A stretch of 64,000 nt of DNA from a bacterium (GTDB lineage: Bacteria; Armatimonadota; UBA5829): positions 220,419 to 284,418 of the forward strand of contig JAJFVF010000022.1 in the NCBI GenBank assembly GCA_021371935.1. Direction: 5' to 3'. Below, piece by piece: positions 4,131 through 63,167 of this stretch (within the stretch, counting starts at the first letter, position 1; the number at the start of each line of letters is the position of its first letter). Below the pieces are notes generated by a model. That model ran no database searches and was not told the DNA's origin. It worked only from the letters and a program-made list of their open reading frames with translations. A program made the translations under genes and the position numbers.

Positions 4131-4969
4131 CTGAGAAGTTCCTTAAGGCGCTTCAAGGCCTTCTGCTGCAGGCGCGAAACATGCATTTGAGAAATGTTGA
4201 GCCTCTTGGCTACTTCGGTCTGGGACATGTCCTTGAAAAAGCGATAATAGATTATCGCCTTTTCGCGAGGCTCCAGACAGTCCACGGCCTGCTTTAGATC
4301 GCCGTAGGTCTCTATGGACTGAAGCGAAGAGTCTATATCGCCCACAAACTCGGCAAGAGTCAACGGTGCGGATTCGCCCTCATACGGCAGCTTGCTGTCA
4401 AGAGAGACTGTATCATATGCGTTTCCGAGTTCGATCGCTTCAAGTGTCTCTTCTTCGCTCGCTCCGACCTTAACGGCAATCTCCTGGATCGACGGAGGAT
4501 GACCCAGTCGCTGGCTGAGTTCCTCAGATGCCTTGTTTGCGGCTAGGTTAAGCTCCTGTAGCCGCCTTGGGACCTTAAGGCTCCACGCCTTATCACGGAA
4601 ATGACGCCTTATCTCACCGACTATCGTGGGAGTGGCATAGGTGGAAAACTTTGTCCCCCTTTCGGGGTCGAACCTGTCGATAGCATTGATCAGCCCGATC
4701 ACACCAACCTGAACCAGGTCTTCAAGCGGCTCGCCTCTGTTTGCGAACTTGCCCGCCAGAAATCGGACCAGGTTCTGGTGCATGATGACCAGTCTGTCTC
4801 GTGTCTTTCGATCACGGAGGCGAACATATTCCCGAAAAAGGCTCTCGGCCTCTTCCTCGGTCCACTCAGCGACAGAACTCTTCTTTTTCGCCGTGGGGTT
4901 ATCGTTGTCCAGCATACTTGACCATCCGAACGCGCGTGCCGTTGTCATTCGGTTCCACATTGACCTCAT
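4124..4969 (-). CDS. sigB: Group-3 RNA polymerase sigma factor (SigB/SigF/SigG type)
   Basis: Sigma-70 regions 2-4 (FSTYATPTIVGEIRRHFRD; HTH near the C-terminus ISQMHVSRLQQKAL). Follows rsbW-like and rsbV-like genes. The true start is probably an internal Met (for example 4915) overlapping the rsbW stop. Confidence 0.85.
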   Translation of the reverse strand: MRSMWNRMTTARAFGWSSMLDNDNPTAKKKSSVAEWTEEEAESLFREYVRLRDRKTRDRLVIMHQNLVRFLAGKFANRGEPLEDLVQVGVIGLINAIDRFDPERGTKFSTYATPTIVGEIRRHFRDKAWSLKVPRRLQELNLAANKASEELSQRLGHPPSIQEIAVKVGASEEETLEAIELGNAYDTVSLDSKLPYEGESAPLTLAEFVGDIDSSLQSIETYGDLKQAVDCLEPREKAIIYYRFFKDMSQTEVAKRLNISQMHVSRLQQKALKRLKELLSQ

Positions 4970-5321
4970 CTACAAGTAAGGTTATGAGCAGCGCTCCAAG
5001 ATTCTCAGGTTCCTGTTCGGCGCTGTCGGCTGTCTCGCCGTCACTCCTGGGACCGGCCTCGTCTAGTATGTCTACAGTCAGCTTGTCGGGACCTATCTCA
5101 CTGCGCAGAATTATGCTGGATTCCGTCTTCGAGTTGCGCTCAGCCCACTCGACCGACGTTGTGCAGGCTTCCCCTACCGCCAGCCGGACATCCTCGACTT
5201 CATCATAAGAAAACTTCATGCGGCTGGCCACACCAAGAATCGCCAGCCTTGCTACACCAACATACTCCGGCTTGCACGGTATCCTCAGCTCCACACAAGC
5301 AGGACATTCGTTGTTTGGCAC
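4899..5321 (-). CDS. rsbW: Anti-sigma factor serine kinase (RsbW/SpoIIAB-type, HATPase_c)
   Basis: KPEYVGVARLAILGVASRMKFSYDEVEDVRLAVGEACT closely parallels B. subtilis RsbW. Sits between the STAS gene and the sigma gene with overlapping stops and starts. Confidence 0.85.
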   Translation of the reverse strand: MPNNECPACVELRIPCKPEYVGVARLAILGVASRMKFSYDEVEDVRLAVGEACTTSVEWAERNSKTESSIILRSEIGPDKLTVDILDEAGPRSDGETADSAEQEPENLGALLITLLVDEVNVEPNDNGTRVRMVKYAGQR

Positions 5322-5323
5322 GT

Positions 5324-5680
5324 TTACACTATCTCCTTTCCCATGACCTCACGGGCGTCTTCCTCGGAATTGTAGATATCGAAAATTTTATCCAATCCGG
5401 TGATCTCGAAAACCCGACGAATCCGAGGACTCGGGCAGATCAGCACCATATTGCCGTCAGCCTCTCGCATCCGCTTCAACCCTCCGATCAATACGCCGAG
5501 AGCCGTGCTGTCCAGATAATCGACCTTGGTGAGATTCACCATAAGTTCTTTTGCGCCGCTTTCGAGAATGTTGATGATCTGCTGCTTGAGCTGCGGCGCC
5601 GTGTATACGTCCACTTCACCTTCAAGTTCGATTAAGGGAAGCTCCTTCTCCAATGTCCTGACGTCTATTTTGAAGTTCAC
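5324..5680 (-). CDS. rsbV: Anti-sigma factor antagonist (STAS domain, RsbV/SpoIIAA-type)
   Basis: STAS pattern with the conserved phosphorylatable Ser context (YLDSTALGVLIGG). GTG start at 5680 preceded by GAGGTGA. Confidence 0.85.
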   Translation of the reverse strand: MNFKIDVRTLEKELPLIELEGEVDVYTAPQLKQQIINILESGAKELMVNLTKVDYLDSTALGVLIGGLKRMREADGNMVLICPSPRIRRVFEITGLDKIFDIYNSEEDAREVMGKEIV

Positions 5681-5762
5681 TCTGTGTCACCTCATCTTAT
5701 TCGGCGTCTCATTTGACTGCCGTCCTCATCTGTGGCACACATTCACATCCATCCCGTAACGA

Positions 5763-6098
5763 TTAGAACTCAGGATTTTCGGACTCTTCCGATGTCTCCT
5801 CTTTCTTCGACTTTATTGCCTGCTTGCCCGCATCAACCGCGCTTACGACCTTATCGCGAGTAGATTCAAGCAGTTCTTTGCTCTTTTTGACCAGTTCCTC
5901 GCTGGACTCAGAAAGGTCATGAACTATCTTGCCGGCCTTATCGCAGATATCATCCTTGGCATGCTTGATGTCGTCTCTCGTCTCACTGCCGGATTTTGGA
6001 GCAACAAGCAGCGCAGTTACTGCGCCTATGAGCGCTCCAAGACCCATCCCAGCCAGGAAATTTATGAATACACCTTTTTCCTCTCGATTTTCATTCAT
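5763..6098 (-). CDS. YtxH-like general stress protein
   Basis: Small protein with one N-terminal hydrophobic helix (FLAGMGLGALIGAVTALLVAP) and a charged K/E-rich tail. Overlaps the DUF948 gene by 8 nt. Confidence 0.6.
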   Translation of the reverse strand: MNENREEKGVFINFLAGMGLGALIGAVTALLVAPKSGSETRDDIKHAKDDICDKAGKIVHDLSESSEELVKKSKELLESTRDKVVSAVDAGKQAIKSKKEETSEESENPEF

Positions 6099-6495
6099 CG
6101 TTGGATTCCTCCTTTGATTGTTTGGCGCTTCTTAACGTCTTGATTCCTTCCTTTATCCCCTGCACCATCGAAAGCAGGGTTGCCCTCGAACTCGAAACTG
6201 CCTTTTCCGCAGCACCGACTATCGTCTTGCCTTCGACAAGGTCTTCGACGGATTGAGCAGCACGCCCCACCCTGTCTACCTGCATCCGTGTCGCGATCAC
6301 CAGATCATTTGTATGCCTCAGCACACGCCCGGCTTCTTCGGCTAACGGCATGATCTCTTCTCTGAAAGCCTTCAGAGTCTCCTCAAGCTCGTATGTCGCA
6401 CGAGAAAGCCGCCTGAAATATATGGCCAGTCCGACTACCAGTAATATAAGGATCACGCTCAGCAAAACTGTGACCGTGACCAAAAGCCAAATCAT
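6091..6495 (-). CDS. DUF948 (YtxG-like) membrane protein
   Basis: N-terminal TM helix followed by a coiled-coil-like region typical of DUF948. The ATGA overlap with the mnmA stop indicates translational coupling. Confidence 0.6.
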   Translation of the reverse strand: MIWLLVTVTVLLSVILILLVVGLAIYFRRLSRATYELEETLKAFREEIMPLAEEAGRVLRHTNDLVIATRMQVDRVGRAAQSVEDLVEGKTIVGAAEKAVSSSRATLLSMVQGIKEGIKTLRSAKQSKEESNDE

Positions 6496-7671: not shown

Positions 7672-9015
7672 CTATCCAATCCCATCCGAACCAGTCTTTC
7701 GCAGTTTTTCAAGGCGCTGCTTGAACTTTGCCTCATGGCCGTGCTCGGTCGGCTCGTAATACGGCCCACTGCTTGCGCCGGGCGGCAAATATTCTTGATC
7801 GACGTGATGGCCGGGGTAATCGTGCGGATATTTGTATCCCTTACCATGCCCGAGGACCTTTGCACCGGGATAGTGCGAGTCTCGCAGATGAACCGGTACC
7901 GGGGGTCCCTTTCTCTCCATTACGTCTCTGTTTGCGCGATCTATCGCCAGGTAGCTCGCGTTGCTCTTTGGTGCGCAGGCCAGATATACACTCGCCTGAG
8001 CCAGAGGAATCTGAGCCTCCGGCATGCCCACGAACTGCACAGCCTGCGCAGCCGCATTGGCTACAACCAGCGCCATCGGGTCAGCGTTTCCTATATCCTC
8101 CGCTGCGGCTATCACCAGCCGCCTCGCCACAAACTTCGGGTCCTCCCCTGCTGCCAGCATTCGCGCAAGCCAGTATACCGCCGCATCGGGGTCAGAACCG
8201 CGCATGGACTTGATATATGCCGAAACGGTATCGTAGTGGTTATCCCCATTCCTGTCGTATTTCAACACCCTTTTTTGAACAGCTTCTTCAGCAATTTTTA
8301 GTGTGACAGTCTTCAATCCTGTTTTGGAATCGATATCGGTTGACGCGACTGCCGATTCAAGAGCATTTAAGGCATTGCGGGCATCACCATCTGCTATGTC
8401 CACAATATGTGCCAAAGCGTCTTCTTCCACCACAATATTTTCACTGCCGAGGCCGCGCTCAGCATCATGCAAAGCACGGTCGACAAGCAATTGCACATTC
8501 TCATTTGAAAGAGGCTCGAACCTGAATATCCGCGCGCGAGAGAGCAGTGGTGTGTTGACCTCGAAATATGGGTTCTCTGTGGTTGCGCCGATAAGGACGA
8601 CCGTGCCATCCTCAACATGCGGCAGAAGCGCGTCCTGCTGGGCTTTATTAAATCGATGAATCTCATCGACAAAGAGAATCGTCTTTCGACCGTCGAGTTT
8701 GCGCTGCTCCTTTGACCGGGCAATCACTTTGCGCATCTCGGGAATGCCAGAAGTGACGGCGCTGAAGTTTTCAAACCGTGCCCGGCTGTGGTGAGCGATG
8801 ATTGCTGCCAGCGTGCTCTTGCCGCAGCCCGCCGGTCCCCAAAAAATCATGGAGGGCAGCTCATCTTTTTCAATTGACGTGCGGAGGAGAGTCCCGGGAG
8901 CCAGAATCTGCTCCTGGCCGACGAACTCGTCAAGAGTCCTAGGACGCATACGCGCGGCAAGCGGCTGCTGGGATAACTCTTCGGGTGTTTCCGGTAAAAG
9001 ATTGGGCATGTACAT
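7672..9015 (-). CDS. rarA: Replication-associated recombination protein A (RarA/MgsA AAA+ ATPase)
   Basis: Walker [10 protein letters not shown] and Walker [11 protein letters not shown], plus a MgsA C-terminal helical domain. Start chosen at MYMPNLL (9015) with GGGAAG upstream; the longer ORF to 9081 would run through a terminator hairpin. Confidence 0.85.
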
Positions 9016-9052
9016 AGACTTCCCAATTTTGGGTGCGAAATCCTGCACATGC

Positions 9053-9079
9053 GAAAAACGGCCCCGGAAATCCGGGGCC
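9053..9079 (-). terminator. Rho-independent terminator downstream of the C1 peptidase gene
   Basis: GGCCCCGG-ATTT-CCGGGGCC 8-bp GC stem followed by GTTTTTC on the minus strand. Confidence 0.6.
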
Positions 9080-9109
9080 ATAAATCTGCTTCATTTAAGG
9101 ATATCCTTA

Positions 9110-11713
9110 CTATCTAACTGCGCGGCTTCCCATCTGTGACCAGCCATTGTAAACTCCATAGACATCTTTGACATAAAGCCAGCATTTGCATTTCTTGCCG
9201 GACATAGACGGTTTCAGCTCAATGCTCCAATTGATCGCAAGTCCGTTTATATTGTTTTGCACAGTTGTGTTCTTGCAATATAGCTTGCATTGACTGTTCT
9301 CGATAACATAGTTGGAACCCGGCGTATAACCACCAATGTTCCTGCCACCTGTGTCATCTCTCAAATAAAGCCTGTCGGTCTGCACATTATACCAAACATA
9401 AACCGCATTTGACGTCGATTTTCTGTCGTTTATTAGGAGAGCGGCCATGCTGATTGACGAACAGCATGCAATATCAAAATAAACACTGCTGACCGTATAT
9501 ATGGCACCTGGACTGAAAGTGGCGCTCACGGGAATCAGACATACATTCCAAGGCTCGGTAAGCGGACGGAATGTATAATCACCGGCTTCGTCCCATCCTT
9601 TTGAGTTTCCACTGTTGTCCACCGCATAAAGCCATCCATAACAAACCTTATCTGCCATCGAAGGCTTCATTTCAATTACCCAGTTGATGGTGAGTGTGTT
9701 TCCACTCATGGATACGGTAGTATATTTGCAGCAGAGCTTACACTGACTGTTTTCTATAACCTCATCGGAACCGGGAGTATACCCCCCCATACTTATGCTG
9801 CCTGTATCATCTCTCAAGTAGAGTCTGCCTCCATAATAGATGCAATACACGGCATTAGTTCCATTTCTGGCCGTGTTTATCAGGAGTCGGACACTCTTGA
9901 TCGTTGACGCGCCCCCTGTGTCTGAGTGCTTGCTGACAAACGTATATTTCCAGTAACCTCTTAAATAGCCATCCGATGGAGTGAGACTGTCATTCGTAAT
10001 AACACTGCTGATCGTATAGACAGCTGACTTCACCGCACTGGGATTCATCCGACTCTTCCATGCCTTTGCCTTAAGAGTGAGCGAACTAGATACAGTCACC
10101 GATCCTCCAGATGCTATAACAGGGTCGCCGGTGGTAGGGTCATCACCGTCTGTGGTATAGTGAATCTCAGCTCCTGCAGTCGCGCAGGATATCGTAACTG
10201 CTTGAGGATTCGTATAGGTTCCGCCGTCCGGCAAGAAAGTCGGGGTGGAAACAGTTCCCGCTGCTGAAGCTGTATAGGCTTTCAAACAGGCGTTGGCATC
10301 ATAATAATTGAGGTCAAACCAACTATTTCCGTCCAGACTTGTAAAACTCTCATCCGGATTTGAGGTTGCCCTGCTGCTGTAATTTTCTATCGGATATTCT
10401 AAAGCCAGTGGATATGTACATCCCGGTGTTATTGTTTTTACCAACACAGTGAATTTGTGCCCATTCGTCACACTGACAGGCGAATTAAGTTTGATGGTGA
10501 CATAGCCCGGATTGGCAGCTGTTCCGGTCTGCGTCAGCCGCAAAGTGCCACCGGATATTGGACCGCTTGTTGGATCGGTATATACCCTTATCTCATAAGT
10601 CGTTGCCGGTACAACGGCATACCATCCTACCGCACTAATTGATGATGTGGATGTTGCAGTAAACTTGTTGGCAAACCAGACCGTCTCATTGTTATAGCCG
10701 TAATTTCCACACCAACCCAGTGTATCATACTGATATACAGCACTATAGTTGCTCGTAGGCTCAGTACCGACGCCGACCCAGTTTGATATGCCTATCAGTT
10801 TGTCATAGTAAGACACGTAAAAGAAACCATCATCACCCCAAGCGGTTCCCCAACTATTTTTTATTATAAATGCTCCATTGCCGGGCGCCGCAGGCGAAAA
10901 TTTGTTTTTATTGTAGTTGTCATCCCACCCGACAACACAAACCTTATGGTTGCCATTAGTTACGCCTCCCGTATAATAATAGGAATATGTAGCGGCATTG
11001 TATGAATCATCATCCCAATACATCCCAGTCGAAACCGCTCCATAGGTAACAACAGCTTGCTTGATGTCATTATTGTCCAGGGAACCGGTCCTATCAGGAA
11101 TGATGATACCATTCTGAAAGTGCTTCCGCACAGTGAGACCCAAAGGTGATGCACAGCTGTCGGGATTATATGGATCATCACTTTCGTTCACCGGTCCATC
11201 CCAACGCGCAAGGTAAGCCATCGCCTTAAGCTCTTGGCCGCCATCACAGCATCCACCATCAAATCCATTAAGATTTTTCATGTTGTTTTCTGAGAAGTCG
11301 CATTCCTCGCCGGGCATCAACACAGATTCCATTGAGCCCAAACTCGAAAATGTCCAACAACTCCCACATGAACCTTGATCCTCGACTCGTGTAAGCTTTC
11401 CCGTGTCACGCAGATCGTAATATGACGGCAGCGCAGCCTTGAGATCACCAAATATTTTCATTCCTTTAAGGTAAGACAAATCCACCGGCGCTGGGACGAA
11501 GCCCCGCGGAACTTCCTCCTCATTGACGCACATAAACCTGTCCATTCGTCCGGCGACATACTCGACAAATGCCGGATTCAATGGCGCGCGCTGCAAAGTC
11601 GGACCTGCCCCATGAACGCTTGAAACCGCCATGGAAAACATTGTAGTGAAGATGAAAACAAGACAAGTGAAGTACTTACGTGTTGCAGATAATCCCATTA
11701 CCGACGCCCCCAC
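9110..11713 (-). CDS. Secreted papain-family (C1) cysteine peptidase with large C-terminal extension including two tandem ~115-aa repeats
   Basis: Signal peptide; catalytic Cys motif QGSCGSCWTFSS; Asn/Trp region NSWGTAWGDDGFF. The C-terminus holds an Ig/chitobiase-C-like segment and a duplicated Cys-containing module (…LYLRDDTG…GGYTPGS…ENSQCKL…). Confidence 0.75.
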   Translation of the reverse strand: MGASVMGLSATRKYFTCLVFIFTTMFSMAVSSVHGAGPTLQRAPLNPAFVEYVAGRMDRFMCVNEEEVPRGFVPAPVDLSYLKGMKIFGDLKAALPSYYDLRDTGKLTRVEDQGSCGSCWTFSSLGSMESVLMPGEECDFSENNMKNLNGFDGGCCDGGQELKAMAYLARWDGPVNESDDPYNPDSCASPLGLTVRKHFQNGIIIPDRTGSLDNNDIKQAVVTYGAVSTGMYWDDDSYNAATYSYYYTGGVTNGNHKVCVVGWDDNYNKNKFSPAAPGNGAFIIKNSWGTAWGDDGFFYVSYYDKLIGISNWVGVGTEPTSNYSAVYQYDTLGWCGNYGYNNETVWFANKFTATSTSSISAVGWYAVVPATTYEIRVYTDPTSGPISGGTLRLTQTGTAANPGYVTIKLNSPVSVTNGHKFTVLVKTITPGCTYPLALEYPIENYSSRATSNPDESFTSLDGNSWFDLNYYDANACLKAYTASAAGTVSTPTFLPDGGTYTNPQAVTISCATAGAEIHYTTDGDDPTTGDPVIASGGSVTVSSSLTLKAKAWKSRMNPSAVKSAVYTISSVITNDSLTPSDGYLRGYWKYTFVSKHSDTGGASTIKSVRLLINTARNGTNAVYCIYYGGRLYLRDDTGSISMGGYTPGSDEVIENSQCKLCCKYTTVSMSGNTLTINWVIEMKPSMADKVCYGWLYAVDNSGNSKGWDEAGDYTFRPLTEPWNVCLIPVSATFSPGAIYTVSSVYFDIACCSSISMAALLINDRKSTSNAVYVWYNVQTDRLYLRDDTGGRNIGGYTPGSNYVIENSQCKLYCKNTTVQNNINGLAINWSIELKPSMSGKKCKCWLYVKDVYGVYNGWSQMGSRAVR

Positions 11714-14068: not shown

Positions 14069-14143
14069 ACCTGGATTATGCGCCTCCCGAATAATCCGGG
14101 TCTCCAAGAGCATTATTCACGTTTTTCGTGAATAATGCGGGTT
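14069..14143 (+). repeat. Double-hairpin intergenic repeat element, copy 2 (abuts ABC ATPase stop codon)
   Basis: AACCTGGATTATGCGCCTCCCGAATAATCCGGGTCTCCAAGAGCATTATTCACGTTTTTCGTGAATAATGCGGG. Confidence 0.8.
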
Positions 14144-30301: not shown

Positions 30302-30627
30302 CGGCAGCGAAACAGGAATGCTCTCTGCTTATCTTCCTGCCGCGCCTGCGAGGTTAGCTGTCGGGCTGGGGTCGGAAGCATGACCCCTCTCCATAACGAA
30401 GATTAGCCCCGTAAATCGGTTCCCCCGTTTTCGCACGATTGCGAAATTCGGCGTCCAAATTATAGACATGTATATGCTTAGTATTCTAGACGCTCTTCAT
30501 CGAGTTTTAGTTCCAATTTTCTGCGTATATCAAAATCAAAATCGAGCTTGTTCGCAATATAAAAACCTGGTATAATTACCAGGTTGGGGAAAGAATATCC
30601 CCTCTCCTTTCTATCTCCTTTAAACTT

Positions 30628-33236: not shown

Positions 33237-33310
33237 AACCCGGATTATGCGCTTTCCGCATAATCCGGGTCTCCGAGAGCATTATTCATGTTTCTCGTGA
33301 ATAATGCGGG
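33237..33310 (+). repeat. Double-hairpin intergenic repeat element, copy 3 (in ruvC 5' region)
   Basis: AACCCGGATTATGCGCTTTCCGCATAATCCGGGTCTCCGAGAGCATTATTCATGTTTCTCGTGAATAATGCGGG; the first stem is 14 bp and perfect. Confidence 0.8.
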
Positions 33311-40528: not shown

Positions 40529-40601
40529 CCCGCATTATTCACGAAGAACGTGAATAATGCTCTCGGAGACCCGGATTATGCGCTTCCCGCATAATCCGGG
40601 T
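40529..40601 (-). repeat. Double-hairpin intergenic repeat element, copy 4 (inverted orientation), flanked by GGGTATATACCC palindrome
   Basis: The reverse complement matches the consensus of copies 1-3. A 12-bp perfect palindrome at 40520-40531 overlaps its end. Confidence 0.8.
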
Positions 40602-48704: not shown

Positions 48705-48780
48705 CGTAAGCTATCCCTCCAGGTAAGATACCTGGAGGGATAGCAATTCCTAATCACCACCAGAAAACAGAGAGGACAAC

Positions 48781-54681: not shown

Positions 54682-56001
54682 TTAGTTATTCCCAAATTCA
54701 TCGATACCACTGGCAGCTTTGTGTGTATGCGGTGTATGTCTGATAAATGGCTTATCCGATACATAAAGCCAGCAACCACCACATATCAGACCTGCACCGA
54801 GATGGACAATCCCTAAAGGCATTATCAGTGATCGCTGGCAACAGGAAACAATGAGCATACCTATACTACCAGCCATACCCAGCGCAAAGTTTATCAGTGA
54901 TGATGCCGAACCCACAGCGTTATGCTCCTGCTCCAGCATCAGGTTCGTACTGGGTGGACGTATGATGCCACTGGCGAAGGACGCAGGTATGATAGAAAGA
55001 AGAAATGCCCAAGGACATAGATGACCAAGTAAGCAAATTGACAGGCCACTTACAGTCATCAGCCCAAAGCACACATTGATAATCGCCTTATTGTGCATGT
55101 GCCTTGACAGGTGCAGAAACAGTATTGGTCCCAATACTTGGCATATTGCATTGAGAGTAAAGAAGTAGCTGTAACCGAACTCACTGACTCTGAACTCCTT
55201 TATGTAGATAAAAGACGATGCTGAGATGTAAGCAAACATCGGCATCAGTACAAGCGAGAACGGCACGAGGAGCGAAGTAAAACCGGGGTTCTTCAGCACT
55301 ATACCCAACTGGCAAAACGTAGTGAAGATGCTGCCCTTATGACGTACAATAGCAGGCTCCCTTATAAATGAACTCCATACTATCGCCGCCACGCCCAACA
55401 TAGACACGACCCAGAATATGCCGCGCCAGGAAGTAAACTTCAAAATTAACGCTCCAAATACAGGTGCCACCATTGGGCCTACAAGCAGCATCGATTGTAT
55501 TATTACCAAGCATTTTTCTCTTTTTCTGCCGTGAAACATGTCTTTGGCGAGCGCGGTTGAAATTGCAGGTGTCGATGCACCTCCAACAGCCTGCAAGACC
55601 CTGCAAATGATCAGCTGCTGCGCATTGGCGCAGAATGAACACAGTATGGTCGACACGGCAAATATTGATAGGCCTGTGTAGAGCGTGGATTTGCGCCCGT
55701 ATTTATCGCTCAGTGGACCCCAAAGCAATGAAGTAATGCTGAAGCAGGCAAAAAACAGAGTCAGTGTAAGACTGATAATCTGTGTACTAGCATGGAGATT
55801 TCTTGCCATTACAGGCAAAGCTGGAAGATACATGTCCGTGGATAACGGAATGCATGCTGCCAATAGCCCGAGAAAACACATGGTACCTACACCGCCAGAC
55901 GGCTTCTGTTCTATGTGTGGCTCCTTGACTACTTCGTTTAAATCAACATATTCTTCCTCTGGCGGCCTACGGTCAATTGTGGTGTTCTCGGTTATGGGCA
56001 A
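54682..56001 (-). CDS. MFS efflux transporter, Bcr/CflA family
   Basis: LGLLAACIPLSTDMYLPALP and DKYGRK motifs. TTG start preceded by AGGAGGA, 14 nt after the TetR stop. Confidence 0.75.
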   Translation of the reverse strand: MPITENTTIDRRPPEEEYVDLNEVVKEPHIEQKPSGGVGTMCFLGLLAACIPLSTDMYLPALPVMARNLHASTQIISLTLTLFFACFSITSLLWGPLSDKYGRKSTLYTGLSIFAVSTILCSFCANAQQLIICRVLQAVGGASTPAISTALAKDMFHGRKREKCLVIIQSMLLVGPMVAPVFGALILKFTSWRGIFWVVSMLGVAAIVWSSFIREPAIVRHKGSIFTTFCQLGIVLKNPGFTSLLVPFSLVLMPMFAYISASSFIYIKEFRVSEFGYSYFFTLNAICQVLGPILFLHLSRHMHNKAIINVCFGLMTVSGLSICLLGHLCPWAFLLSIIPASFASGIIRPPSTNLMLEQEHNAVGSASSLINFALGMAGSIGMLIVSCCQRSLIMPLGIVHLGAGLICGGCWLYVSDKPFIRHTPHTHKAASGIDEFGNN

Positions 56002-56015
56002 TTCTACTTATCCTC

Positions 56016-56642
56016 CTATTTCACTATCAGAAAACACGACTTAATGAAGTCCTTTGCACCCCGGACTGAGGCACGACTATTCAACTCATTCTTATCCAAA
56101 AGGCAAAACGAGACCATGCCGACTATCATGTTTGCCAAGGCGCGGGGTGAGACTTCGGAAGGGCGTAAACCCTGGTCACGCTGTATTAACTCAGCAATCA
56201 TCTCTAGATTTGCACTAATCCGATCTCGAGCATAATCAGCTGTCGGATTTTCCATGTTGGCTATCTCTCGCTGGATTATACGCATCACATATGTGTGCTG
56301 ATAGAACAAATCAAAAAAGAAATCTATGAAACGAGCTACCAGTCCGGATGCAGTTGGACCGGATGCGAGAAGAGCGCGCAACTCTTGCTCTTCGACATCA
56401 AAACAGCCTGATACGATAGCCTGCAAGAGACCCTGCTTACCACCAAAATAGTGGTTGATAAGTGATATATTGCAGTCTGCCTGTGCAGCTATTTCACGAG
56501 TGCTTGTGCCATCATACCCTTGCTTGGCAAACAACTCCGTGGCGGCGTCAATGAGTCTGGCTTTCGTATCGATTGAAGTCTTATCATTTGAATGCGTGTC
56601 GTTCATAGGTATAGTATAAGCCAACAGACAGCAATTTGTCAA
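56016..56642 (-). CDS. TetR/AcrR-family transcriptional regulator (co-operonic with Bcr-type MFS)
   Basis: HTH ATELFAKQGYDGTSTREIAAQADCNISLINHYF. The start may be the internal Met at 56606. Confidence 0.8.
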   Translation of the reverse strand: MTNCCLLAYTIPMNDTHSNDKTSIDTKARLIDAATELFAKQGYDGTSTREIAAQADCNISLINHYFGGKQGLLQAIVSGCFDVEEQELRALLASGPTASGLVARFIDFFFDLFYQHTYVMRIIQREIANMENPTADYARDRISANLEMIAELIQRDQGLRPSEVSPRALANMIVGMVSFCLLDKNELNSRASVRGAKDFIKSCFLIVK

Positions 56643-56822
56643 TCAATCGTTTGATTATATAATTCACTTGACGGCATATGATACAGGCTGAAAAGCCATA
56701 AATCGGCTGATAACCGGCAGTGGGGATGGTGTTATTGCGGAGTTCGGACTAATCTTTGGACAAAAAGCAGAGGATATGCTCACCAGGCGTCCAGTGAACA
56801 TTTTCCTCTGCGAATGTGCGAC

Positions 56823-57278
56823 TTAAGCCGTTGTTTTCTCAACCAATGTAGTGATACTTTCTTCGGACATGCCGAGTACAGCAGACAGCTCTTCACCAAG
56901 TAACTTTTTGGCATGTTTTAGCTGACGCTGCTGAGTTACCCTGGGGTAACGTGTTTTAGGTTGTATTACTCCATGCCGGATAGCACGAGCAAGATCAATG
57001 GGATCAGACCAACTTATTTCATGCTCTTCGGAGCAGAGGCTGGTATCGTCCGATTCGCCGGAAAGTATACTTACTGCTTGCTGAAGTTCTTCAGCGGTGG
57101 CCAGCGGCCGAACACCGATTTCGTCCACCGCCTCTACTGCCACCAGGATTGTTGAGGATATGGATGGTTTGGGAATAACAAAATAATCCCTGGCTTTGCC
57201 GTCTTTCAGGCGTTTCTCAATCGACTCTATAACACACACGCCATATCTAGGATGTAAAACTGTGTCACCGATTTCCAT
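56823..57278 (-). CDS. CarD/CdnL-family RNA-polymerase-binding transcription factor
   Basis: N-terminal Tudor-like RID MEIGDTVLHPRYGVCVIESIEKR…DYFVI plus a C-terminal helical domain. Confidence 0.8.
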   Translation of the reverse strand: MEIGDTVLHPRYGVCVIESIEKRLKDGKARDYFVIPKPSISSTILVAVEAVDEIGVRPLATAEELQQAVSILSGESDDTSLCSEEHEISWSDPIDLARAIRHGVIQPKTRYPRVTQQRQLKHAKKLLGEELSAVLGMSEESITTLVEKTTA

Positions 57279-57758
57279 GCTGGGAAATCGCCCCCTTTCA
57301 AGACTCTCTGTCTATTGACGATTCCAATATCGTTCGCCATACGGACGAGAGACAAATGCAAATCGCTTGAGTGTGCGCTTACTACAGGTTGTGGTCTACG
57401 CTATTGCCCAGGCCATATATAGTATTATAGCCTCATTCCGCGTATGTGTCAAGCAATAGACATACATGACTTGTATATACTTATATTGCGGTATATGTTG
57501 TAAATATACAGGGCTAGTCACAAATGTAGATGCAAAATGGCGATAATATATATAAGATATGGAATGAATATAGATATAATGGTGGGGTATACGTGTATAA
57601 CCTATGCACATCTGCACGCTAAAATGTGTAATAAAAAAGAGGATAATTAAGAATTCAATAGTGCACTCGAAAATCCGGTCGAAGTAAAGGGGATCAATTC
57701 GATTGTGCATGACGCCAATAGATGTGTGTTCGTGATAAGCATCACCAAGATTGGGTAA

Positions 57759-58547
57759 TCAGCGTCTCGAAATCACATTGTCCAACAGGAGTTTGTGCAG
57801 AGTTGGGTTGGCGGTAAGAATTTCAATATCGGGGTTGCAAAGGTCTAGCGGGTCGCCATGGAAGTCCGACACTACTCCCCCAGCCTCCTCGACTATCAAT
57901 ATGCCCGCGGCTACATCCCACGGATTCAGGCCGCCCTGCATATAGGCATGAAGCCTTCCGGCAGCAATATACGCCAGCACCAGAGCTGCTGAACCTAATC
58001 GCCTGAAATAGGACGTGTCGCGGCTGATCTGCTCGATATAATCGACAAACATCTCACGGTCCACTTTGCGCCTTACCCAGCTCACCGAGACCAGACTGTC
58101 CTCCAGAGACTCCTGTGCGGATACATGAATCCTCTCACCATTCAAATAGGCTCCGCCGCCGTGATTGGCAAAATACATTTCATCGTGAATCGGGTCGTAG
58201 ATGACACCCATTTCGGGCTTGCCGTCAGCAGTAACTGCAATCGAAACACAGAAGAAGGGAATGCCGGTCATATAGTTTCGAGTGCCGTCGAGCGGGTCGA
58301 TTATCCATACCCTGCCACTGTCACCCTCACCGACCACCCCGCTCTCCTCCGATAGGATGCGGTCATTGGGGTATTGTTCGCGGATGCGGTCTATTACGAA
58401 TTTTTCAGAGGCTATATCTACCTCAGTAACTATATCTCCAAGGTCTGCTTTTGTACGCCATTTTTTGACTGCATGAAATTTGTCTCTTATAATCTCACCC
58501 GCGCCCAGCGCGAGGTCTTTCATAAAATCTTCCTGCTGCAAACTCAC
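57759..58547 (-). CDS. Inositol monophosphatase-family protein (SuhB/IMPase)
   Basis: WIIDPLDGT metal-binding motif, …VSWV…GG…. Confidence 0.85.
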   Translation of the reverse strand: MSLQQEDFMKDLALGAGEIIRDKFHAVKKWRTKADLGDIVTEVDIASEKFVIDRIREQYPNDRILSEESGVVGEGDSGRVWIIDPLDGTRNYMTGIPFFCVSIAVTADGKPEMGVIYDPIHDEMYFANHGGGAYLNGERIHVSAQESLEDSLVSVSWVRRKVDREMFVDYIEQISRDTSYFRRLGSAALVLAYIAAGRLHAYMQGGLNPWDVAAGILIVEEAGGVVSDFHGDPLDLCNPDIEILTANPTLHKLLLDNVISRR

Positions 58548-59830
58548 TATCTTGCTTCCAATTCTCCCTTTGGCGGTATTATTATTTCTCGCCCTACTTG
58601 CAAGCTTTTCATTTCATCAATCTTATTATACTCCGCCAGAGAATATGCGAACTTCGCATTACCATAGAATTTTCTGCATACGCTCCATAGCGTATCGCCC
58701 CTTTGCAGAGTATATGCCTGTGTCTTGATCTCCATCGGCTTGACATGAGGCTTTTGCTGCACGACATAAGCTTCATGACTCGGATTCACACCCGATATTA
58801 TTTTGTTCGATATCGGCAAACGTATGGCTGCCATACACAGCGCCGCCGCCATTATTATACCGATTATGATATTGCGCAGCGTGTGACCCACCCTGCGCTT
58901 GCCCTTACTCTGCCGCCTGACCGCACTGGCAGCTCCCACCAGACCATAGTTCGGACAAAGGCCTATTGTGCCGTCATGCCAATAGAAAAAACCATCCTTG
59001 CCCATAGTCGGGTCGAGCACATATGCCACCATATTCGGGTGTCTGAAGAAATGCCTGTGAATGAACACATCCGCATCGGACATGAACACTCCCCAGCCTG
59101 CATGTGTATGGAACCAACCCAATACATCCAGGTCGCCATAGCACTTATCGCGATCCAGTAGTATCTGATCCCACGCTTGCAGGTCAATCTTTACGCTGGT
59201 CCGGCTCCCTTTTGCATCATAAGCCGGCAGCACCGCCTTGATGTGTATGGCGCGTTCATGTTCTTCGTCGGTGACGGTCCCGAGCAGCAGACCCGCACAC
59301 TCAGTGTGCCTGTCCTTGCTCGCAAAATCCTCAATCTGCCTGTGAACCGCTGCGTCAATACGCACATCCACCTTAAGGTCGAGCCGAACATCCTCGGTGA
59401 TCAGTCTCTGGTTCAAGATTTTCACATCGGAATGCTGCACAGGATCACGTTCGAGAACATTGTTTTCGTCAAACGCGAAATCCATGGTCTCCTGTGCCGC
59501 TGTGATATCCGGGACAATCCTGAAAACGGGGTGATCTGGAAGATCGAGGTCGGTTAGTCTTGATTGAGGGTCGATTGCACTGCCGCGTAACTGCACTAAG
59601 CCGTAGCTGATTGGATAATTGTCCGAACCCACGCTCGGTAACTTGGCCAACTCGGCAATGCGGCTTGCCACCTGCAGGACCGACCAGTCATCCGGCAGCA
59701 AGCACTCATATGCCCAAATCTCGGCGGCGTCTAAGACCATTGAGGTTATATGTCCCATCTGCGACACCTCCATAGACCTTACGAGCATATATTTACAGCT
59801 TTTTTTGATTTTGTCAAGTAGAGCATGCAT
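58547..59830 (-). CDS. Membrane-anchored JAMM/MPN+ metallopeptidase-domain protein with C-terminal LysM domain and N-terminal domain of unknown function
   Basis: JAMM motif E…HTHAGWGVFMSDAD (E, HxH-x7-S-xxD). TM helix IIIGIIMAAALCMAAI. LysM YTLQRGDTLWSVCRKFYGNAKFAYSLAEYNKI…GREIIIP. Confidence 0.6.
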   Translation of the reverse strand: MHALLDKIKKSCKYMLVRSMEVSQMGHITSMVLDAAEIWAYECLLPDDWSVLQVASRIAELAKLPSVGSDNYPISYGLVQLRGSAIDPQSRLTDLDLPDHPVFRIVPDITAAQETMDFAFDENNVLERDPVQHSDVKILNQRLITEDVRLDLKVDVRIDAAVHRQIEDFASKDRHTECAGLLLGTVTDEEHERAIHIKAVLPAYDAKGSRTSVKIDLQAWDQILLDRDKCYGDLDVLGWFHTHAGWGVFMSDADVFIHRHFFRHPNMVAYVLDPTMGKDGFFYWHDGTIGLCPNYGLVGAASAVRRQSKGKRRVGHTLRNIIIGIIMAAALCMAAIRLPISNKIISGVNPSHEAYVVQQKPHVKPMEIKTQAYTLQRGDTLWSVCRKFYGNAKFAYSLAEYNKIDEMKSLQVGREIIIPPKGELEAR

Positions 59831-59938
59831 GTTTCGGGTTATGCGATAGCGAGTTATGAGTTAAGGCTTGCCGGTCATTAACTGCTACCGAAGCAACAAA
59901 CCGATTTTCAAAATGCGGAAGTCGCAATATAATATATA

Positions 59939-60748
59939 TTGCGATTATACAGTGCAGGCGGCAGGGACATGGATACATCTCGATATTTGGATGACTTGAG
60001 AGCGAATTCGCACTCTCCGCGAGAGATTGATTGGCTCCACGAGTGTATTGCAGCGATACAATGGGAGAGCCGTATGTCTCCACATTTTCTTCTTCATTCG
60101 TATTGCGACCTACCGGTTGAAGCAGTTGTTGACCAGACATTTATTGATGCGCTGGAACAGATGCATGTTGAGCTTACGGCATTTCTTTCGCTATCAACAC
60201 ACACTAAACACGAAAGAATTAGCCTCAAGACGACCTTTACCTGCTTTATTGTTCAGATCAATGCCTCGCGGCAATTCGGCTCCATCTGTAGTCCGAATGT
60301 GCTGTTTTACGTAATGAACCCGATAGTGGCCCCTCTTCATTCGGAGTTCCATATGCTGCGCTTTCGCCATGAGCTAACCCACCTTTTGTGGGGGCAGGCA
60401 TATGGCGAAGCTCCTCCGTTGTTCATGGAAGGTCTCGCGGAGTATGCGGGTTACCTAGGGGCAGCGGACGAGTTGAAATTACCCGTCATGGCAACGCTGA
60501 CCGAAGTACCACCGTTGGCTGATATAGCGATTGCGGACGACTATTGGAAGCATGGAGGGGTAGCATTGTACCGTGCTAGTGGAGCCTGGGTACAGTATCT
60601 GGTTGAGCGATGGGGATGGGAAAAGTTGAAACAACTGTTCTTGCTTACAGAATATACCGACACACAAATCCAGGATCATTTCGCGCAAGTCTACGCTCAA
60701 AAACTTGAGACTGTAGAGGCTGATTGGCGAAATCACATCTTAAAATAG
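59939..60748 (+). CDS. Peptidase_MA_2-like (gluzincin-type) putative zinc metallopeptidase
   Basis: HELTHLLWG…PLFMEGLAEYAG (HExxH plus downstream Glu in the EGLAEY context). The TTG start lies inside a 23-bp palindrome; an alternative ATG is at 59969. Confidence 0.5.
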   Translation: MRLYSAGGRDMDTSRYLDDLRANSHSPREIDWLHECIAAIQWESRMSPHFLLHSYCDLPVEAVVDQTFIDALEQMHVELTAFLSLSTHTKHERISLKTTFTCFIVQINASRQFGSICSPNVLFYVMNPIVAPLHSEFHMLRFRHELTHLLWGQAYGEAPPLFMEGLAEYAGYLGAADELKLPVMATLTEVPPLADIAIADDYWKHGGVALYRASGAWVQYLVERWGWEKLKQLFLLTEYTDTQIQDHFAQVYAQKLETVEADWRNHILK

Positions 60749-60988
60749 GGAGCAATTTGGTCCCTTCGGCAGCAGTCAATCACACACTGCGTATTGGTTT
60801 CCCACATTTGCACTGCCAAAGCCACAGAACCCACAGCAAACGACATCTTCCAGCCAAATGCGTGTTCACGATATGCGAACAATATTTAGCCGAAATATCA
60901 TAGCCTGTTAGCTACATTTTGCTTGAGTTGCCGCCTTATAATTATGGGAGGGTATTTTTCAGGCCGGCAGCCGGTTTCAATATAAACA

Positions 60989-61061
60989 CAAAAAAAGCAA
61001 AACGAACTGAGCGTGAACCCCAAAATTTGAGCACAAGACAGTTCGTTTTGCCTGATTTTTT
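60989..61061. terminator. Bidirectional rho-independent terminator (13-bp stem, 30-nt loop) serving icd and possibly the MA-peptidase gene
   Basis: AAAAAAA GCAAAACGAACTG-N29-CAGTTCGTTTTGC CTGATTTTTTAT. Confidence 0.6.
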
Positions 61062-61079
61062 ATAGTTGTGGAAGCGGGA

Positions 61080-62240
61080 TTATGCCAGTTCCCTGATGAT
61101 CGCGTCAGCTACTTGTGAGGTGCCGACTGCACTTGGGTCGTTGCGGTCAGGCTTCATGTCATATGTAACGTCTTTGCCTTCGGCAACAACCTTTGCAACT
61201 GATGCTTCAAGCCTGTCGGCTGCGTCATTCTCGCCGATGTGCCGCAGCATCAGCATGCCGGAAAGAATCATCGCAATCGGGTTCACCTTGTTCTGACCTT
61301 TATACTTCGGCGCGCTGCCATGCGTCGGTTCAAAGAGAGCAACCGTGTCACCAATATTCGCACCGGGAGCCACTCCCAGCCCGCCCACCAGACCTGCACA
61401 CAGGTCTGAGAGAATATCGCCGTAGAGGTTAGGCAGGCAAATTACATCATAAAGCTCGGGCTTCTGAACAAGCTGCATGCACATATTGTCTACCAGGCGC
61501 TCATTATACACGATCCCGGCGCCTTTGCCTGCGCAGTCGGCCAGAGTCGGATCACCCTGTTCAGGCTCAAGATCGCTCCACTCAAATTTGGCGCCGTATG
61601 CTTTGGCAACCTCACGAGCGACCTTATAGAATAGACCGTCGGTGAACTTCATGATATTCGCCTTGGCCACGGCCGTGACGCTTTTGCGGCCATTTGCGAT
61701 GGCATAGTCGAACGCCAGCTTGACGATCCGTCGTGTGCCGGTGACCGATATCGGCTTGATCGAGATAGCAGAATCCTCACGAATCTTGCCGCCGGACATT
61801 TTTATGACCTGGTTGGCTTCATCTGAACCCAAGTCCCACTCAACGCCAGCATATAGATCCTCGGTGTTCTCACGCACGATAACCAGGTCGACATCCTGAT
61901 ACTTGGACCTTATGCCGGGATAGAACTTGCAGGGACGGACGCACGCATAAAGGTCTAGCTCCTTGCGCAGCGCGACATTCACGCTGCGAAATCCCTTGCC
62001 GATGGGAGTGGTAATCGGTCCCTTGAGCGCGACTTTGTTTGTCCTGATGCTCTCGATGACCTCTGACGGCAGCGGTGTGCCATACTTGTCCATGACATCC
62101 ACACCGGCATCCTTGACATCCCATTCTATATCGACCCCGGTTGCTTCGATGACCCTGCGAGTCGCTTCAGTGATCTCGGGTCCGGTGCCGTCGCCGGGGA
62201 TTAGAGTGATCTTATACGCCAACTGACTGTCCTCCAACAT
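61080..62240 (-). CDS. icd: NADP-dependent isocitrate dehydrogenase
   Basis: [13 protein letters not shown]; [22 protein letters not shown] (IDH hallmark SxNVALR); [12 protein letters not shown]. Confidence 0.85.
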
Positions 62241-62333: not shown

Positions 62334-63167
62334 CTAGACTTTCAGGAGGAATACTGCGACCATAAGGATGGCAAAGACTATCCGATAGACAACAAATGCT
62401 GTCAGAGAATTTTTGCGAAGGAAGCTGATGAGGAAATGTATCGCAATATAACCGAAAACGGCTGCGCTTGCAAACCCCCAGCCGAATGCTGCCCATTCTT
62501 GAGAAGGCATACCAGTGTGCAAGACTTTTTTGAGCGCCATCATGCCTGCGCCAAAGACAATGGGGGTCGAAAGTAGAAAGCTGAACCTGGCGGATGCTGA
62601 ACGGTCGAGATTCCTGAACAGCCCGGCTGTGATCGTGATTCCAGACCTCGATACGCCCGGCAGCAGCGCCATTGCCTGCGCAATGCCGATTATGATATAG
62701 TCCACATATGTCATGTGAGCAATATCACGCTGCTTTTTGCCGAGACGATCAGCCAGAAGCATTATCAGACCGAATATGGCCATAGCAGGCGCAACAATAT
62801 ACCACACGCTGAGCTTGGCCTCGATCAGATCATCCCACAAATATCCCACTATTGCTGCAGGCACACAAGCCACAATTATTGGAACAAACAGGCGGCCGCT
62901 TACACCAGCGGAATCGTCCTTGTCATACACCTTGCCCTTGAATATGTGAGAGAAAAAGCTCGAAAGAATCGATATCCAGTCGCGCCAGTAATATACAACC
63001 AGAGCGAGAAGAGTGCCCAGGTGGGCTGCTACGTCGAATGCCTTGCCCTGGTAGTTCCAATGGAGCAGATATGGGATCGCTATAAGGTGTCCCGAACTGC
63101 TGACGGGGATGAACTCAGTGAGGCCTTGGACGGCTCCCAATATAATGGCTTGCCATGCAGATAACAA
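62334..63167 (-). CDS. uppP: Undecaprenyl-diphosphate phosphatase
   Basis: LGAVQGLTEFIPVSSSGH motif; …GISRSG…; 8 TM. Confidence 0.9.
   Translation of the reverse strand: MLSAWQAIILGAVQGLTEFIPVSSSGHLIAIPYLLHWNYQGKAFDVAAHLGTLLALVVYYWRDWISILSSFFSHIFKGKVYDKDDSAGVSGRLFVPIIVACVPAAIVGYLWDDLIEAKLSVWYIVAPAMAIFGLIMLLADRLGKKQRDIAHMTYVDYIIIGIAQAMALLPGVSRSGITITAGLFRNLDRSASARFSFLLSTPIVFGAGMMALKKVLHTGMPSQEWAAFGWGFASAAVFGYIAIHFLISFLRKNSLTAFVVYRIVFAILMVAVFLLKV

Follow-up and report, generated by a model that had tools for sequence, protein, structure and literature searches.

Bacterial operons that combine genes for a ubiquitin-like protein (Ubl), an E1, an E2, a RING protein and an Rpn11-like protease bear on the origin of ubiquitin signalling. 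The bacterial cassette of YukD-type Ubl, ThiF, UQ_con and Prok-RING_1 genes is presumably the counterpart of the ubiquitin (Ub)–E1–E2–RING–Rpn11 operon of Caldiarchaeum, and this operon was reportedly analysed by Burroughs, Iyer and Aravind in 2011. The Rpn11 of Caldiarchaeum subterraneum (CsRpn11) trims its cognate Ub precursor by cutting off a C-terminal extension (Fuchs et al. 2018, PMC6043591); the same paper mentions "bacterial lysM-associated JAMM sequences" only as omitted from its cluster map. YukD has been reported as not covalently conjugated, in a paper that describes it only in the context of the type VII secretion system (T7SS) and leaves LysM unmentioned (Iyer et al. 2006, PMC1779556). 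Experimental tests of membrane- or wall-linked versions of the bacterial ubiquitin operons were not found in the literature. The window analysed here, a stretch of 64,000 nucleotides from a member of the Armatimonadota (assembly GCA_021371935.1, contig JAJFVF010000022.1, positions 220,419 to 284,418 of the forward strand), contains a minus-strand gene whose product joins a Ubl, a JAMM metalloprotease domain, a transmembrane (TM) helix and a LysM domain in one polypeptide. It seems that this protein descends, by reduction and fusion, from a bacterial ubiquitination cassette associated with the membrane. Our reading as a whole, held with moderate confidence, is that the gene represents an orphaned Ubl–JAMM–TM–LysM fusion derived from such a cassette, that its E1, E2 and E3 partners were lost, that the Ubl docks in cis, and that the divergently transcribed peptidase next to it is unrelated; the evolutionary part is well supported, and the mechanism is one that we infer.

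The gene and the parts of its product are as follows, with positions counted in the window and residues numbered in the 403-aa protein that starts at ATG 59758:

58547..59758, minus strand: Ubl–JAMM–TM–LysM gene, 403 aa, start ATG at 59756-59758, stop TAG at 58547-58549
59495..59758, minus strand: Ubl β-grasp domain of the YukD/EsaB type, aa 1-88, with the tail R80-I-V-P83-D-I-T-A-A88
59426..59494, minus strand: acidic disordered linker, aa 89-111; predicted local distance difference test score (pLDDT) <50 for aa 91-107
58934..59425, minus strand: Rpn11-type JAMM/MPN+ domain, aa 112-275, with E153, H217, H219, S227 and D230
58817..58879, minus strand: predicted single TM helix, about aa 294-314, Kyte-Doolittle maximum 2.28, with the basic stretch RRQSKGKRRVGHTLR just before it
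58574..58714, minus strand: LysM peptidoglycan-binding domain, aa 349-395, Pfam PF01476

An earlier reading of this DNA, made from the sequence only, had described the N-terminal part (about 170 aa) as having no recognisable motif and had proposed that it be checked for a β-grasp fold. Pfam matches across the family, AlphaFold2 models and Foldseek searches identified this part as a YukD-type β-grasp Ubl followed by a disordered linker. Among the 48 homologues of the fused protein on which all family statistics are based, 33 matched Pfam YukD (PF08817) at E ≤ 0.01 (best E 3.8e-9); the window protein alone presented a faint match (E 0.09, residues 40-99 of the 427-codon open reading frame (ORF) discussed below). 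An AlphaFold2 model built on the family alignment (mean pLDDT 85) presented a ββαββ domain at residues 1-87, with the Ubl core modelled at pLDDT >90, followed by disorder at 91-107, the MPN domain, a helix at 290-312, which corresponds to the TM helix, and the LysM domain. A separate model of residues 1-112 presented the same ββαββ fold (pLDDT 83.5), and a Foldseek search with it retrieved the bacterial Ubl of a Ubl–deubiquitinase complex (8tyx_A) and the EccD Ubl of ESX systems, as well as Caldiarchaeum ubiquitin, ubiquitin, ubiquitin variants and SUMO. The linker is 15-35 aa long across the family, with 33% Asp/Glu and a pairwise identity of 14%. Membership in a T7SS, as might be considered for a YukD-type domain, was rejected, as no T7SS family is among the listed neighbours; such families are absent from the Pfam listings of seven related loci (L013, L014 and L019-L023) and from seven neighbours scanned in twelve others (L001-L012), no search having been aimed at EssC or WXG100.

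The JAMM core proposed in the sequence-only reading was confirmed by a match to Pfam JAB (PF01398; E 6e-10 to 7e-10, 39 bits against a cut-off of 22.5) and by the motif E…HTH-x7-S-xx-D, the five residues of which (E153, H217, H219, S227 and D230) are invariant in 48/48 homologues. Matches of this domain by sequence in the PDB were to Rpn11, CSN5 and AMSH, and the top Foldseek matches were CsRpn11 (6fnn), Rpn11, CSN5 and AMSH (probability 1.00, target-normalised TM-score up to 0.76). As judged by motif and modelled fold, the domain has an intact Rpn11-type active site, and Zn-dependent (iso)peptidase activity at a Ubl C-terminus is predicted for it. An identity as RadC or as a lambda gpK-like protein was rejected, as the closest relatives by sequence and structure are Rpn11, CSN5 and AMSH; the window protein presented no Pfam or NCBIfam match to RadC or to the JAB–NlpC/P60 tail-assembly architecture.

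The single TM helix and the outward-facing LysM domain of the earlier description also found support. The protein has one hydrophobic segment, flanked by six Lys and Arg residues on its N-terminal side vs one on its C-terminal side (family means 4.9 vs 2.9; N-side excess in 37/48 members), a positive-inside count that fits an N-in/C-out topology with a predicted extracytoplasmic LysM. Pfam LysM (PF01476) matched the window protein at E 5e-6 (26.7-26.9 bits against a cut-off of 20.9) and matched 48/48 family members. Pairwise identity is 50% in the Ubl, 62% in the JAMM domain and 52% in the LysM domain, as compared to 14-22% in the linkers; all three domains are thus under constraint, that is, under purifying selection. 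The sequence-only reading had not recognised the architecture as that of a described family. Our literature searches found no paper that describes a Ubl–JAMM–TM–LysM protein and no experimental characterisation of the family; the claim holds to that extent, with the qualifications that LysM-associated JAMMs have been mentioned (PMC6043591) and that the fold of the N-terminal domain is a known one.

Evidence for the origin of the fused protein came from a search of 1.84 billion representative proteins with the family profile. Full-length coverage of the profile was seen in about 17 clusters, and 681 proteins matched at E ≤ 1e-30; most of the best 150 of these 681 are 290-370 aa long and match only profile positions ~125-402, i.e., they represent JAMM–TM–LysM proteins without the Ubl. 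Named members belong to Armatimonadota and to Anoxynatronum sibiricum, a clostridial species in culture, and relatives that have JAB only are present in other phyla. All four contexts of Ubl-less genes that were retrieved (L019-L022) are YukD–ThiF–UQ_con–JAB/LysM–Prok-RING_1 operons. The core of this cassette consists of a free YukD-type Ubl of 89-90 aa, a ThiF E1 (uncalled in L021, which has a gap at that position), a UQ_con E2, the JAMM–TM–LysM gene and one to four Prok-RING_1 genes, each RING protein carrying a strong TM segment; frequent extras are further JAB genes, a trypsin-like protease and an FHA/YscD-like protein. Both halves of the fused protein are homologous to products of these operons: the window protein and the operon JAMM–LysM protein share 31% identity over 273 aa (E 1e-45), and the window Ubl is 28-29% identical to the free operon Ubls (E 3e-10 to 2e-9). 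A tblastn search with the cassette proteins identified no E1, E2 or RING gene in the 64-kb window or in loci L001-L018.

Three of the cassettes are large (L020, 1565-10823; L021, 1949-10927; L022, 1893-10978), with up to four TM-anchored Prok-RING_1 proteins, two UQ_con E2s and two or three JAB genes, as well as a TM-anchored trypsin-like protease, an M48 peptidase (in L020) and an FHA/Yop-YscD-like protein. Experimental work on cassettes of this type was not found in the literature.

Bacterial Ubl/JAB systems are often defensive, and the fused protein presented weak PADLOC JAB matches (E 8e-5) and a weak match to the NCBIfam model "6A-MBL cap2_3", which might suggest an anti-phage defence component of the Bil or CBASS-Cap3 type. 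We regard such a role as very improbable, as E1, E2 and effector genes are not adjacent, the neighbours are housekeeping genes conserved across the phylum, and the Ubl, E2 and RING proteins of the operons gave no PADLOC match. Membership in Bil or CBASS Cap2/Cap3 systems as such was rejected, as the JAB matches are generic and the partner genes are absent.

A route by which a cassette can give rise to a fused gene is visible in a pair of syntenic loci of Clostridia type, outside Armatimonadota. The Anoxynatronum cassette locus (L019) and a second locus (L023) share flanking genes with 61-91% amino-acid identity, which encode a ferredoxin, three subunits of an oxoacid:ferredoxin oxidoreductase, a DUF8052 protein, CstA and a phosphoglucomutase. 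Where L019 carries five genes for Ubl, E1, E2, JAMM/LysM and RING (2888-6429), L023 carries a single gene (8001-9305) that encodes a 434-aa Ubl–JAMM–TM–LysM protein. The Ubl of this protein is 69% identical to that of L019, the JAMM–LysM part only 41%, and its Ubl tail reads PEITAK, with Lys in place of Gly. By this synteny, loss of the conjugation genes by deletion, together with an in-frame fusion, is a demonstrable route, taken at least once outside Armatimonadota.

The fusion point can be read from the Ubl tail. Free operon Ubls end in …VLRLLPEITAG followed directly by the stop codon (one has an extra Ser), and in the fused family the corresponding tail RxVPEIxAG occupies residues 80-88 (R80, L/I, V, P83, E, I, x, A and residue 88; R80 and P83 both in 48/48), followed by the acidic linker. 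Residue 88 is thus equivalent to the conjugatable Gly at the C-terminus of the free Ubl. It is Gly in 34, Ala in nine, Ser in two, and Cys, Thr and Asn in one each of the 48 members; in the window protein the tail reads RIVPDITAA|QET, with Ala88. The losses of Gly88 are scattered among close relatives (e.g., P0088 has Gly, P0089 and P0091 have Ala), and the pattern of residues seems to indicate that a small residue is required at this position and Gly not specifically. The same alignment also bears on a different explanation, in which the fused protein is a precursor: the JAMM domain would cut after residue 88, the released 88-aa Ubl would be conjugated by E1, E2 and RING proteins encoded elsewhere, and the membrane-bound JAMM would also deconjugate the targets. 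The exact alignment of the fused tail with the mature C-terminus …PEITAG, the presence of Gly88 in 34/48 homologues and the occurrence of complete cassettes in Armatimonadota (L021) are all in line with a precursor, as is the ability of CsRpn11 to process its Ub precursor after Gly-Gly and to cleave Ub conjugates as well (PMC6043591). However, the window protein and its closest relatives have Ala88, and the repeated replacement of Gly (by Ala, Ser, Cys, Thr and Asn, and by Lys in the Clostridia-like fusion) would not be expected of a residue that has to be adenylated by an E1; in addition, the window and stretches of up to 10 kb at 14 related loci have no E1, E2 or RING gene, and L023 lost its conjugation genes at the very locus of the fusion. 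We therefore consider a precursor unlikely and favour the orphaned fusion.

For the orphaned fusion we propose the following mechanism. On the cytoplasmic side, the Ubl tail would lead through the acidic disordered linker of ~25 aa into the JAMM isopeptidase, and the Ubl, a built-in substrate or pseudosubstrate, would be bound in cis by the ubiquitin-binding surface of the JAMM domain, where residues 84-88 would occupy the catalytic groove. Outside the membrane, the LysM domain would hold the protein at the cell wall. In the lineage of the window, Ala88 and the lack of a nearby E1 make permanent attachment the likelier state, in which the Ubl would most likely regulate or target the protease rather than be released for conjugation. 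The docking would resemble the pairing of the ubiquitin tail with the Ins-1 hairpin in Rpn11-type enzymes. A weak hint of it may be seen in the models: in the full-length model residues 85-87 are a β-strand and pLDDT is 87 for residues 81-90, as compared to coil and pLDDT 76 in the model of the isolated N-terminus. A more speculative extension, to which we assign a low probability, is an envelope sensor independent of E1 and E2, in which LysM would read the state of the peptidoglycan and gate the JAMM domain, which would cleave or unmask its own Ubl as a non-covalent signal, possibly directed at the inositol-monophosphatase (IMPase)-family enzyme encoded next to it; such a "one-component ubiquitin switch" would have evolved at least twice by operon collapse.

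Several points weigh against the orphaned fusion with cis docking as we read it. Gly88 is kept in 34/48 members, so in much of the family the Ubl may be released by self-cleavage, and may even be conjugated through a distant E1; the analysis covers 64 kb of the genome, the rest of which may encode E1, E2 and RING proteins. The evidence for cis docking consists of the difference in DSSP assignment and pLDDT between the two models, and that for a LysM outside the cell consists of the positive-inside count. Finally, our reading gives no role to the conserved partner gene, which is described next.

The gene directly downstream of the fused gene is its conserved partner:

57759..58547, minus strand: inositol-monophosphatase-family gene (Pfam Inositol_P, E 5e-72), the start of which overlaps the JAMM gene stop (junction TAGTG)

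Fourteen related loci were compared, namely twelve species-level GTDB loci (L001-L012), all from Armatimonadota or unclassified metagenome-assembled genomes, and two closer ones, L013 (83% identity) and L014 (68% identity). In 8/12 GTDB loci (L001-L005 and L007-L009), in L013 and L014, and in the window, the fused gene is followed directly by an IMPase-family gene of the same strand, and overlap between the JAMM stop and the IMPase start is common. The conserved partner of the JAMM gene is thus the IMPase-family gene and not the peptidase, and the fused form appears to belong to the Armatimonadota core genome and to share a transcript with this partner. The IMPase-family gene of the window reached no NCBIfam equivalog cut-off (SuhB, HisN, FBPase or CysQ). 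What lies upstream varies by locus: the genes there include those for MnmE, BacA, an ankyrin-repeat protein and an outer-membrane β-barrel protein, as well as for proteins that resemble, by eye, RadA and a UvrD-type helicase. MnmE and an HtrA-like protease are examples of housekeeping neighbours. The order in L014 is AI-2E permease, BacA, JAMM and IMPase, as compared to the window, where an isocitrate dehydrogenase gene and the peptidase gene are inserted between BacA (UppP) and the JAMM gene.

This core-genome housekeeping context could point to a cell-envelope enzyme that has no Ubl substrate, with the JAMM domain acting, e.g., on stem peptides of peptidoglycan precursors at the cytoplasmic face or in division, LysM providing localisation and the Ubl serving as an interaction scaffold. 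Consistent with this, UppP/BacA is encoded nearby in L014 and in the window, a glycosyltransferase-4 family gene is near in L014, LysM proteins are common in wall remodelling and division, and the LysM region presented weak NCBIfam matches to YneA, DipM and ActS. We find this explanation improbable, as the JAMM domain is specifically Rpn11/CSN5/AMSH-like, its closest homologues lie in Ubl–E1–E2–E3 operons and the Ubl tail resembles a substrate tail in its conservation; we know of no precedent for a JAMM protein acting on a peptidoglycan-precursor substrate.

In three of the four loci without the IMPase-family gene, an HDOD/HD-domain gene adjoins the fused gene (L006, 1574-2464; L011, 5259-6155; L012, 4368-5252); it is convergent with the fused gene in two of these loci and divergent in one, and may be a second recurrent neighbour. 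On the other side of the IMPase-family gene of the window, a 480-bp AT-rich spacer (57279-57758; 39% GC vs 50.5% in the window) separates it from a CarD-like gene; this spacer presented no credible ORF, Rfam match or tRNA, and Rfam and tRNA scans of 56000-61200 gave no match.

The gene pair with the divergent peptidase required correction of two start codons, which concern these features:

59767..59817, minus strand: promoter-like and ribosome-binding region of the JAMM gene, with TTGACA at 59812-59817, TAAATA at 59790-59795 and GGAGG at 59767-59771
59969..60748, plus strand: Peptidase_MA_2-like zinc metallopeptidase gene, 259 aa, with HELTH at 60368-60382 and EGLAEY at 60428-60445

The ORF table lists a 427-codon ORF at 58547..59830 on the minus strand and a 269-codon ORF at 59939..60748 on the plus strand, and the sequence-only reading had accordingly started the JAMM gene at 59830 (427 aa), had started the peptidase at a TTG and had measured 108 bp between the two. 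An NCBI protein that is 100% identical to the JAMM gene product (P0001) is 403 aa long, and the alignment of the 48 homologues begins at MGHITS…, i.e., at Met25 of the 427-codon ORF, which fixes the start at ATG 59758. The 72 nt that represent the 24 extra codons are nearly identical in L013, the protein of which is 83% identical, and recognisable in L014; they read TTGACA-16 nt-TAAATA…GGAGG-8 nt-ATG, and look like a conserved promoter and Shine-Dalgarno stretch of the JAMM gene, although the TTGACA/TAAATA boxes are absent from the matches listed by a sigma-70 consensus scan. On the other strand, MDTSRYLDDL, encoded from ATG 59969, aligns with MNTSRYLDDL, the annotated start of an 84%-identical homologue (L015); TTG 59939, which lies within the palindrome described below, is thus not the start codon of the peptidase. 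The spacer between the corrected starts (59758 and 59969) is 210 bp.

The HExxH…EGLAEY pattern described for the peptidase was confirmed: the motifs HELTH and EGLAEY are present, and the match to Peptidase_MA_2 (PF13485) reached 31.7 bits, just under the cut-off of 32.4. Its family is small (22 homologues, 20 of which are precomputed as PF13485), and it presented no PDB relative by sequence and no PADLOC match. The sequence-only reading had joined this gene to the JAMM–LysM gene as a co-regulated divergent pair with a palindrome as shared operator. In favour of such a pair, the two genes are adjacent and divergent here, and the spacer between them holds a perfect palindrome of a statistically unusual kind. 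Comparison with other genomes told against it: no Peptidase_MA_2 gene lies near the JAMM gene, within up to 10 kb, in any of the 14 related loci (0/12 GTDB loci, nor L013 or L014), and the pair is found in 0/3 loci of peptidase homologues (84%, 79% and 72% identity), which are set among acetyltransferase, nucleotidyltransferase and toxin-antitoxin genes or beside a pyrophosphatase gene. The peptidase is thus an unrelated, lineage-specific accessory neighbour, outside the JAMM system.

Two features in the spacer concern the peptidase gene:

59922-59944: perfect palindrome TCGCAATATA-ATA-TATATTGCGA, with 10-nt arms and a 3-nt spacer
59905..59933, plus strand: sigma-70-like promoter match TTTTCA-17-TATAAT (10/12) for the peptidase, a consensus match of a kind that occurs in this region at shuffle expectation

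The palindrome had been described as near-perfect, at about 59905-59927; it is real and indeed perfect (10+3+10), and lies ~17 nt to the right of that position. Six distinct perfect palindromes of such size occur in the 64-kb window, as compared to ~0.5 expected under a first-order Markov model. The palindrome shares bases with the predicted -10 box of the peptidase gene, a position expected for a repressor operator, and ends 25 nt upstream of ATG 59969; it lies ~100 nt upstream of the -35 box of the JAMM gene. It was not found upstream of homologues of either the JAMM gene or the peptidase gene. The sequence is best described as a lineage-specific candidate operator of the peptidase gene only. 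With the peptidase start at ATG 59969, the palindrome no longer contains a start codon, and in view of its overlap with the peptidase -10 box only, its distance from the JAMM promoter and its lack of conservation, a shared operator for a co-regulated pair deserves scarcely any credence.

No second full copy of the palindrome occurs in the 64-kb window, which rules it out as a recurring regulon motif there, and half-site 10-mers occur elsewhere only at 30552 and 62441. The half-site TCGCAATATA thus has three plus-strand copies (59922-59931, 30552-30561 and 62441-62450) vs ~0.06 expected by our own estimate. At 30552 the half-site lies between genes, immediately before another palindrome, AACCTGGTA-TAAT-TACCAGGTT, that contains TATAAT; at 62441 it lies inside the UppP gene. 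Other perfect palindromes of the window include ATTATTCACG-N5-CGTGAATAAT (14112-14136 and 40534-40558) and GGATTATGCG-N5-CGCATAATCC (33242-33266 and 40573-40597), which lie 15 nt apart at 40534-40597, as well as CCCTCCAGGT-N5-ACCTGGAGGG (48715-48739). These N5-spaced palindromes resemble the operators of one regulon, or of two.

For annotation, the analysis corrected two start codons and removed a spurious functional link to the neighbouring peptidase. In a wider sense, the locus shows what remains after the loss of conjugation enzymes, i.e., a modifier and a deconjugating protease kept in one membrane protein across a phylum, and implies a conjugation-independent function for a Ubl/deubiquitinase pair that is physically tied to peptidoglycan. 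A single polypeptide that carries both the enzyme and its presumptive substrate also represents a compact handle on the specificity of LysM-associated JAMM proteins.

Compared with known systems, the divergent neighbour shares the HExxH motif and the downstream Glu with Peptidase_MA_2 (PF13485), and differs in its score just under the gathering threshold, its small clade of 22 proteins and the variable accessory contexts of that clade. The fused protein itself can be set beside the eukaryotic deubiquitinases USP14, USP4 and USP7, whose built-in, non-conjugated Ubl serves to regulate or target the catalytic domain; these enzymes have the USP cysteine protease fold, are eukaryotic and have neither membrane nor LysM tether, so the likeness is one of analogy only. 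With YukD/EsaB and the N-terminal Ubl of EccD in T7SSs, the fused protein shares PF08817 and the β-grasp fold, and YukD, as a bacterial Ubl that is reportedly not conjugated and that is attached to machinery of the membrane, provides a precedent; here, however, the partner is a JAMM protease, and no T7SS genes (FtsK-like ATPase, WXG100) were present in the sampled neighbourhoods, in which they were not specifically searched for. In structure, the JAMM domain is matched best by the Caldiarchaeum subterraneum pair CsRpn11/CsUb (6fnn), which also gives one of the best matches to the Ubl, and the precursor cleavage by CsRpn11 is a precedent for a Ubl tail entering a JAMM groove. CsRpn11 differs in being soluble and separate from CsUb, with Gly-Gly specificity, a complete E1/E2/E3 operon and neither TM helix nor LysM. 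Also close is the bacterial cassette, which has a JAMM–TM–LysM protein with a homologous body, a homologous Ubl with a PEIxAG tail and an association with the membrane. In the window protein, by comparison, the Ubl is fused in-line at the N-terminus of the deubiquitinase, E1, E2 and RING genes are not nearby, the terminal Gly of the tail has become Ala, and the fused gene sits with the IMPase-family gene in a conserved housekeeping context.

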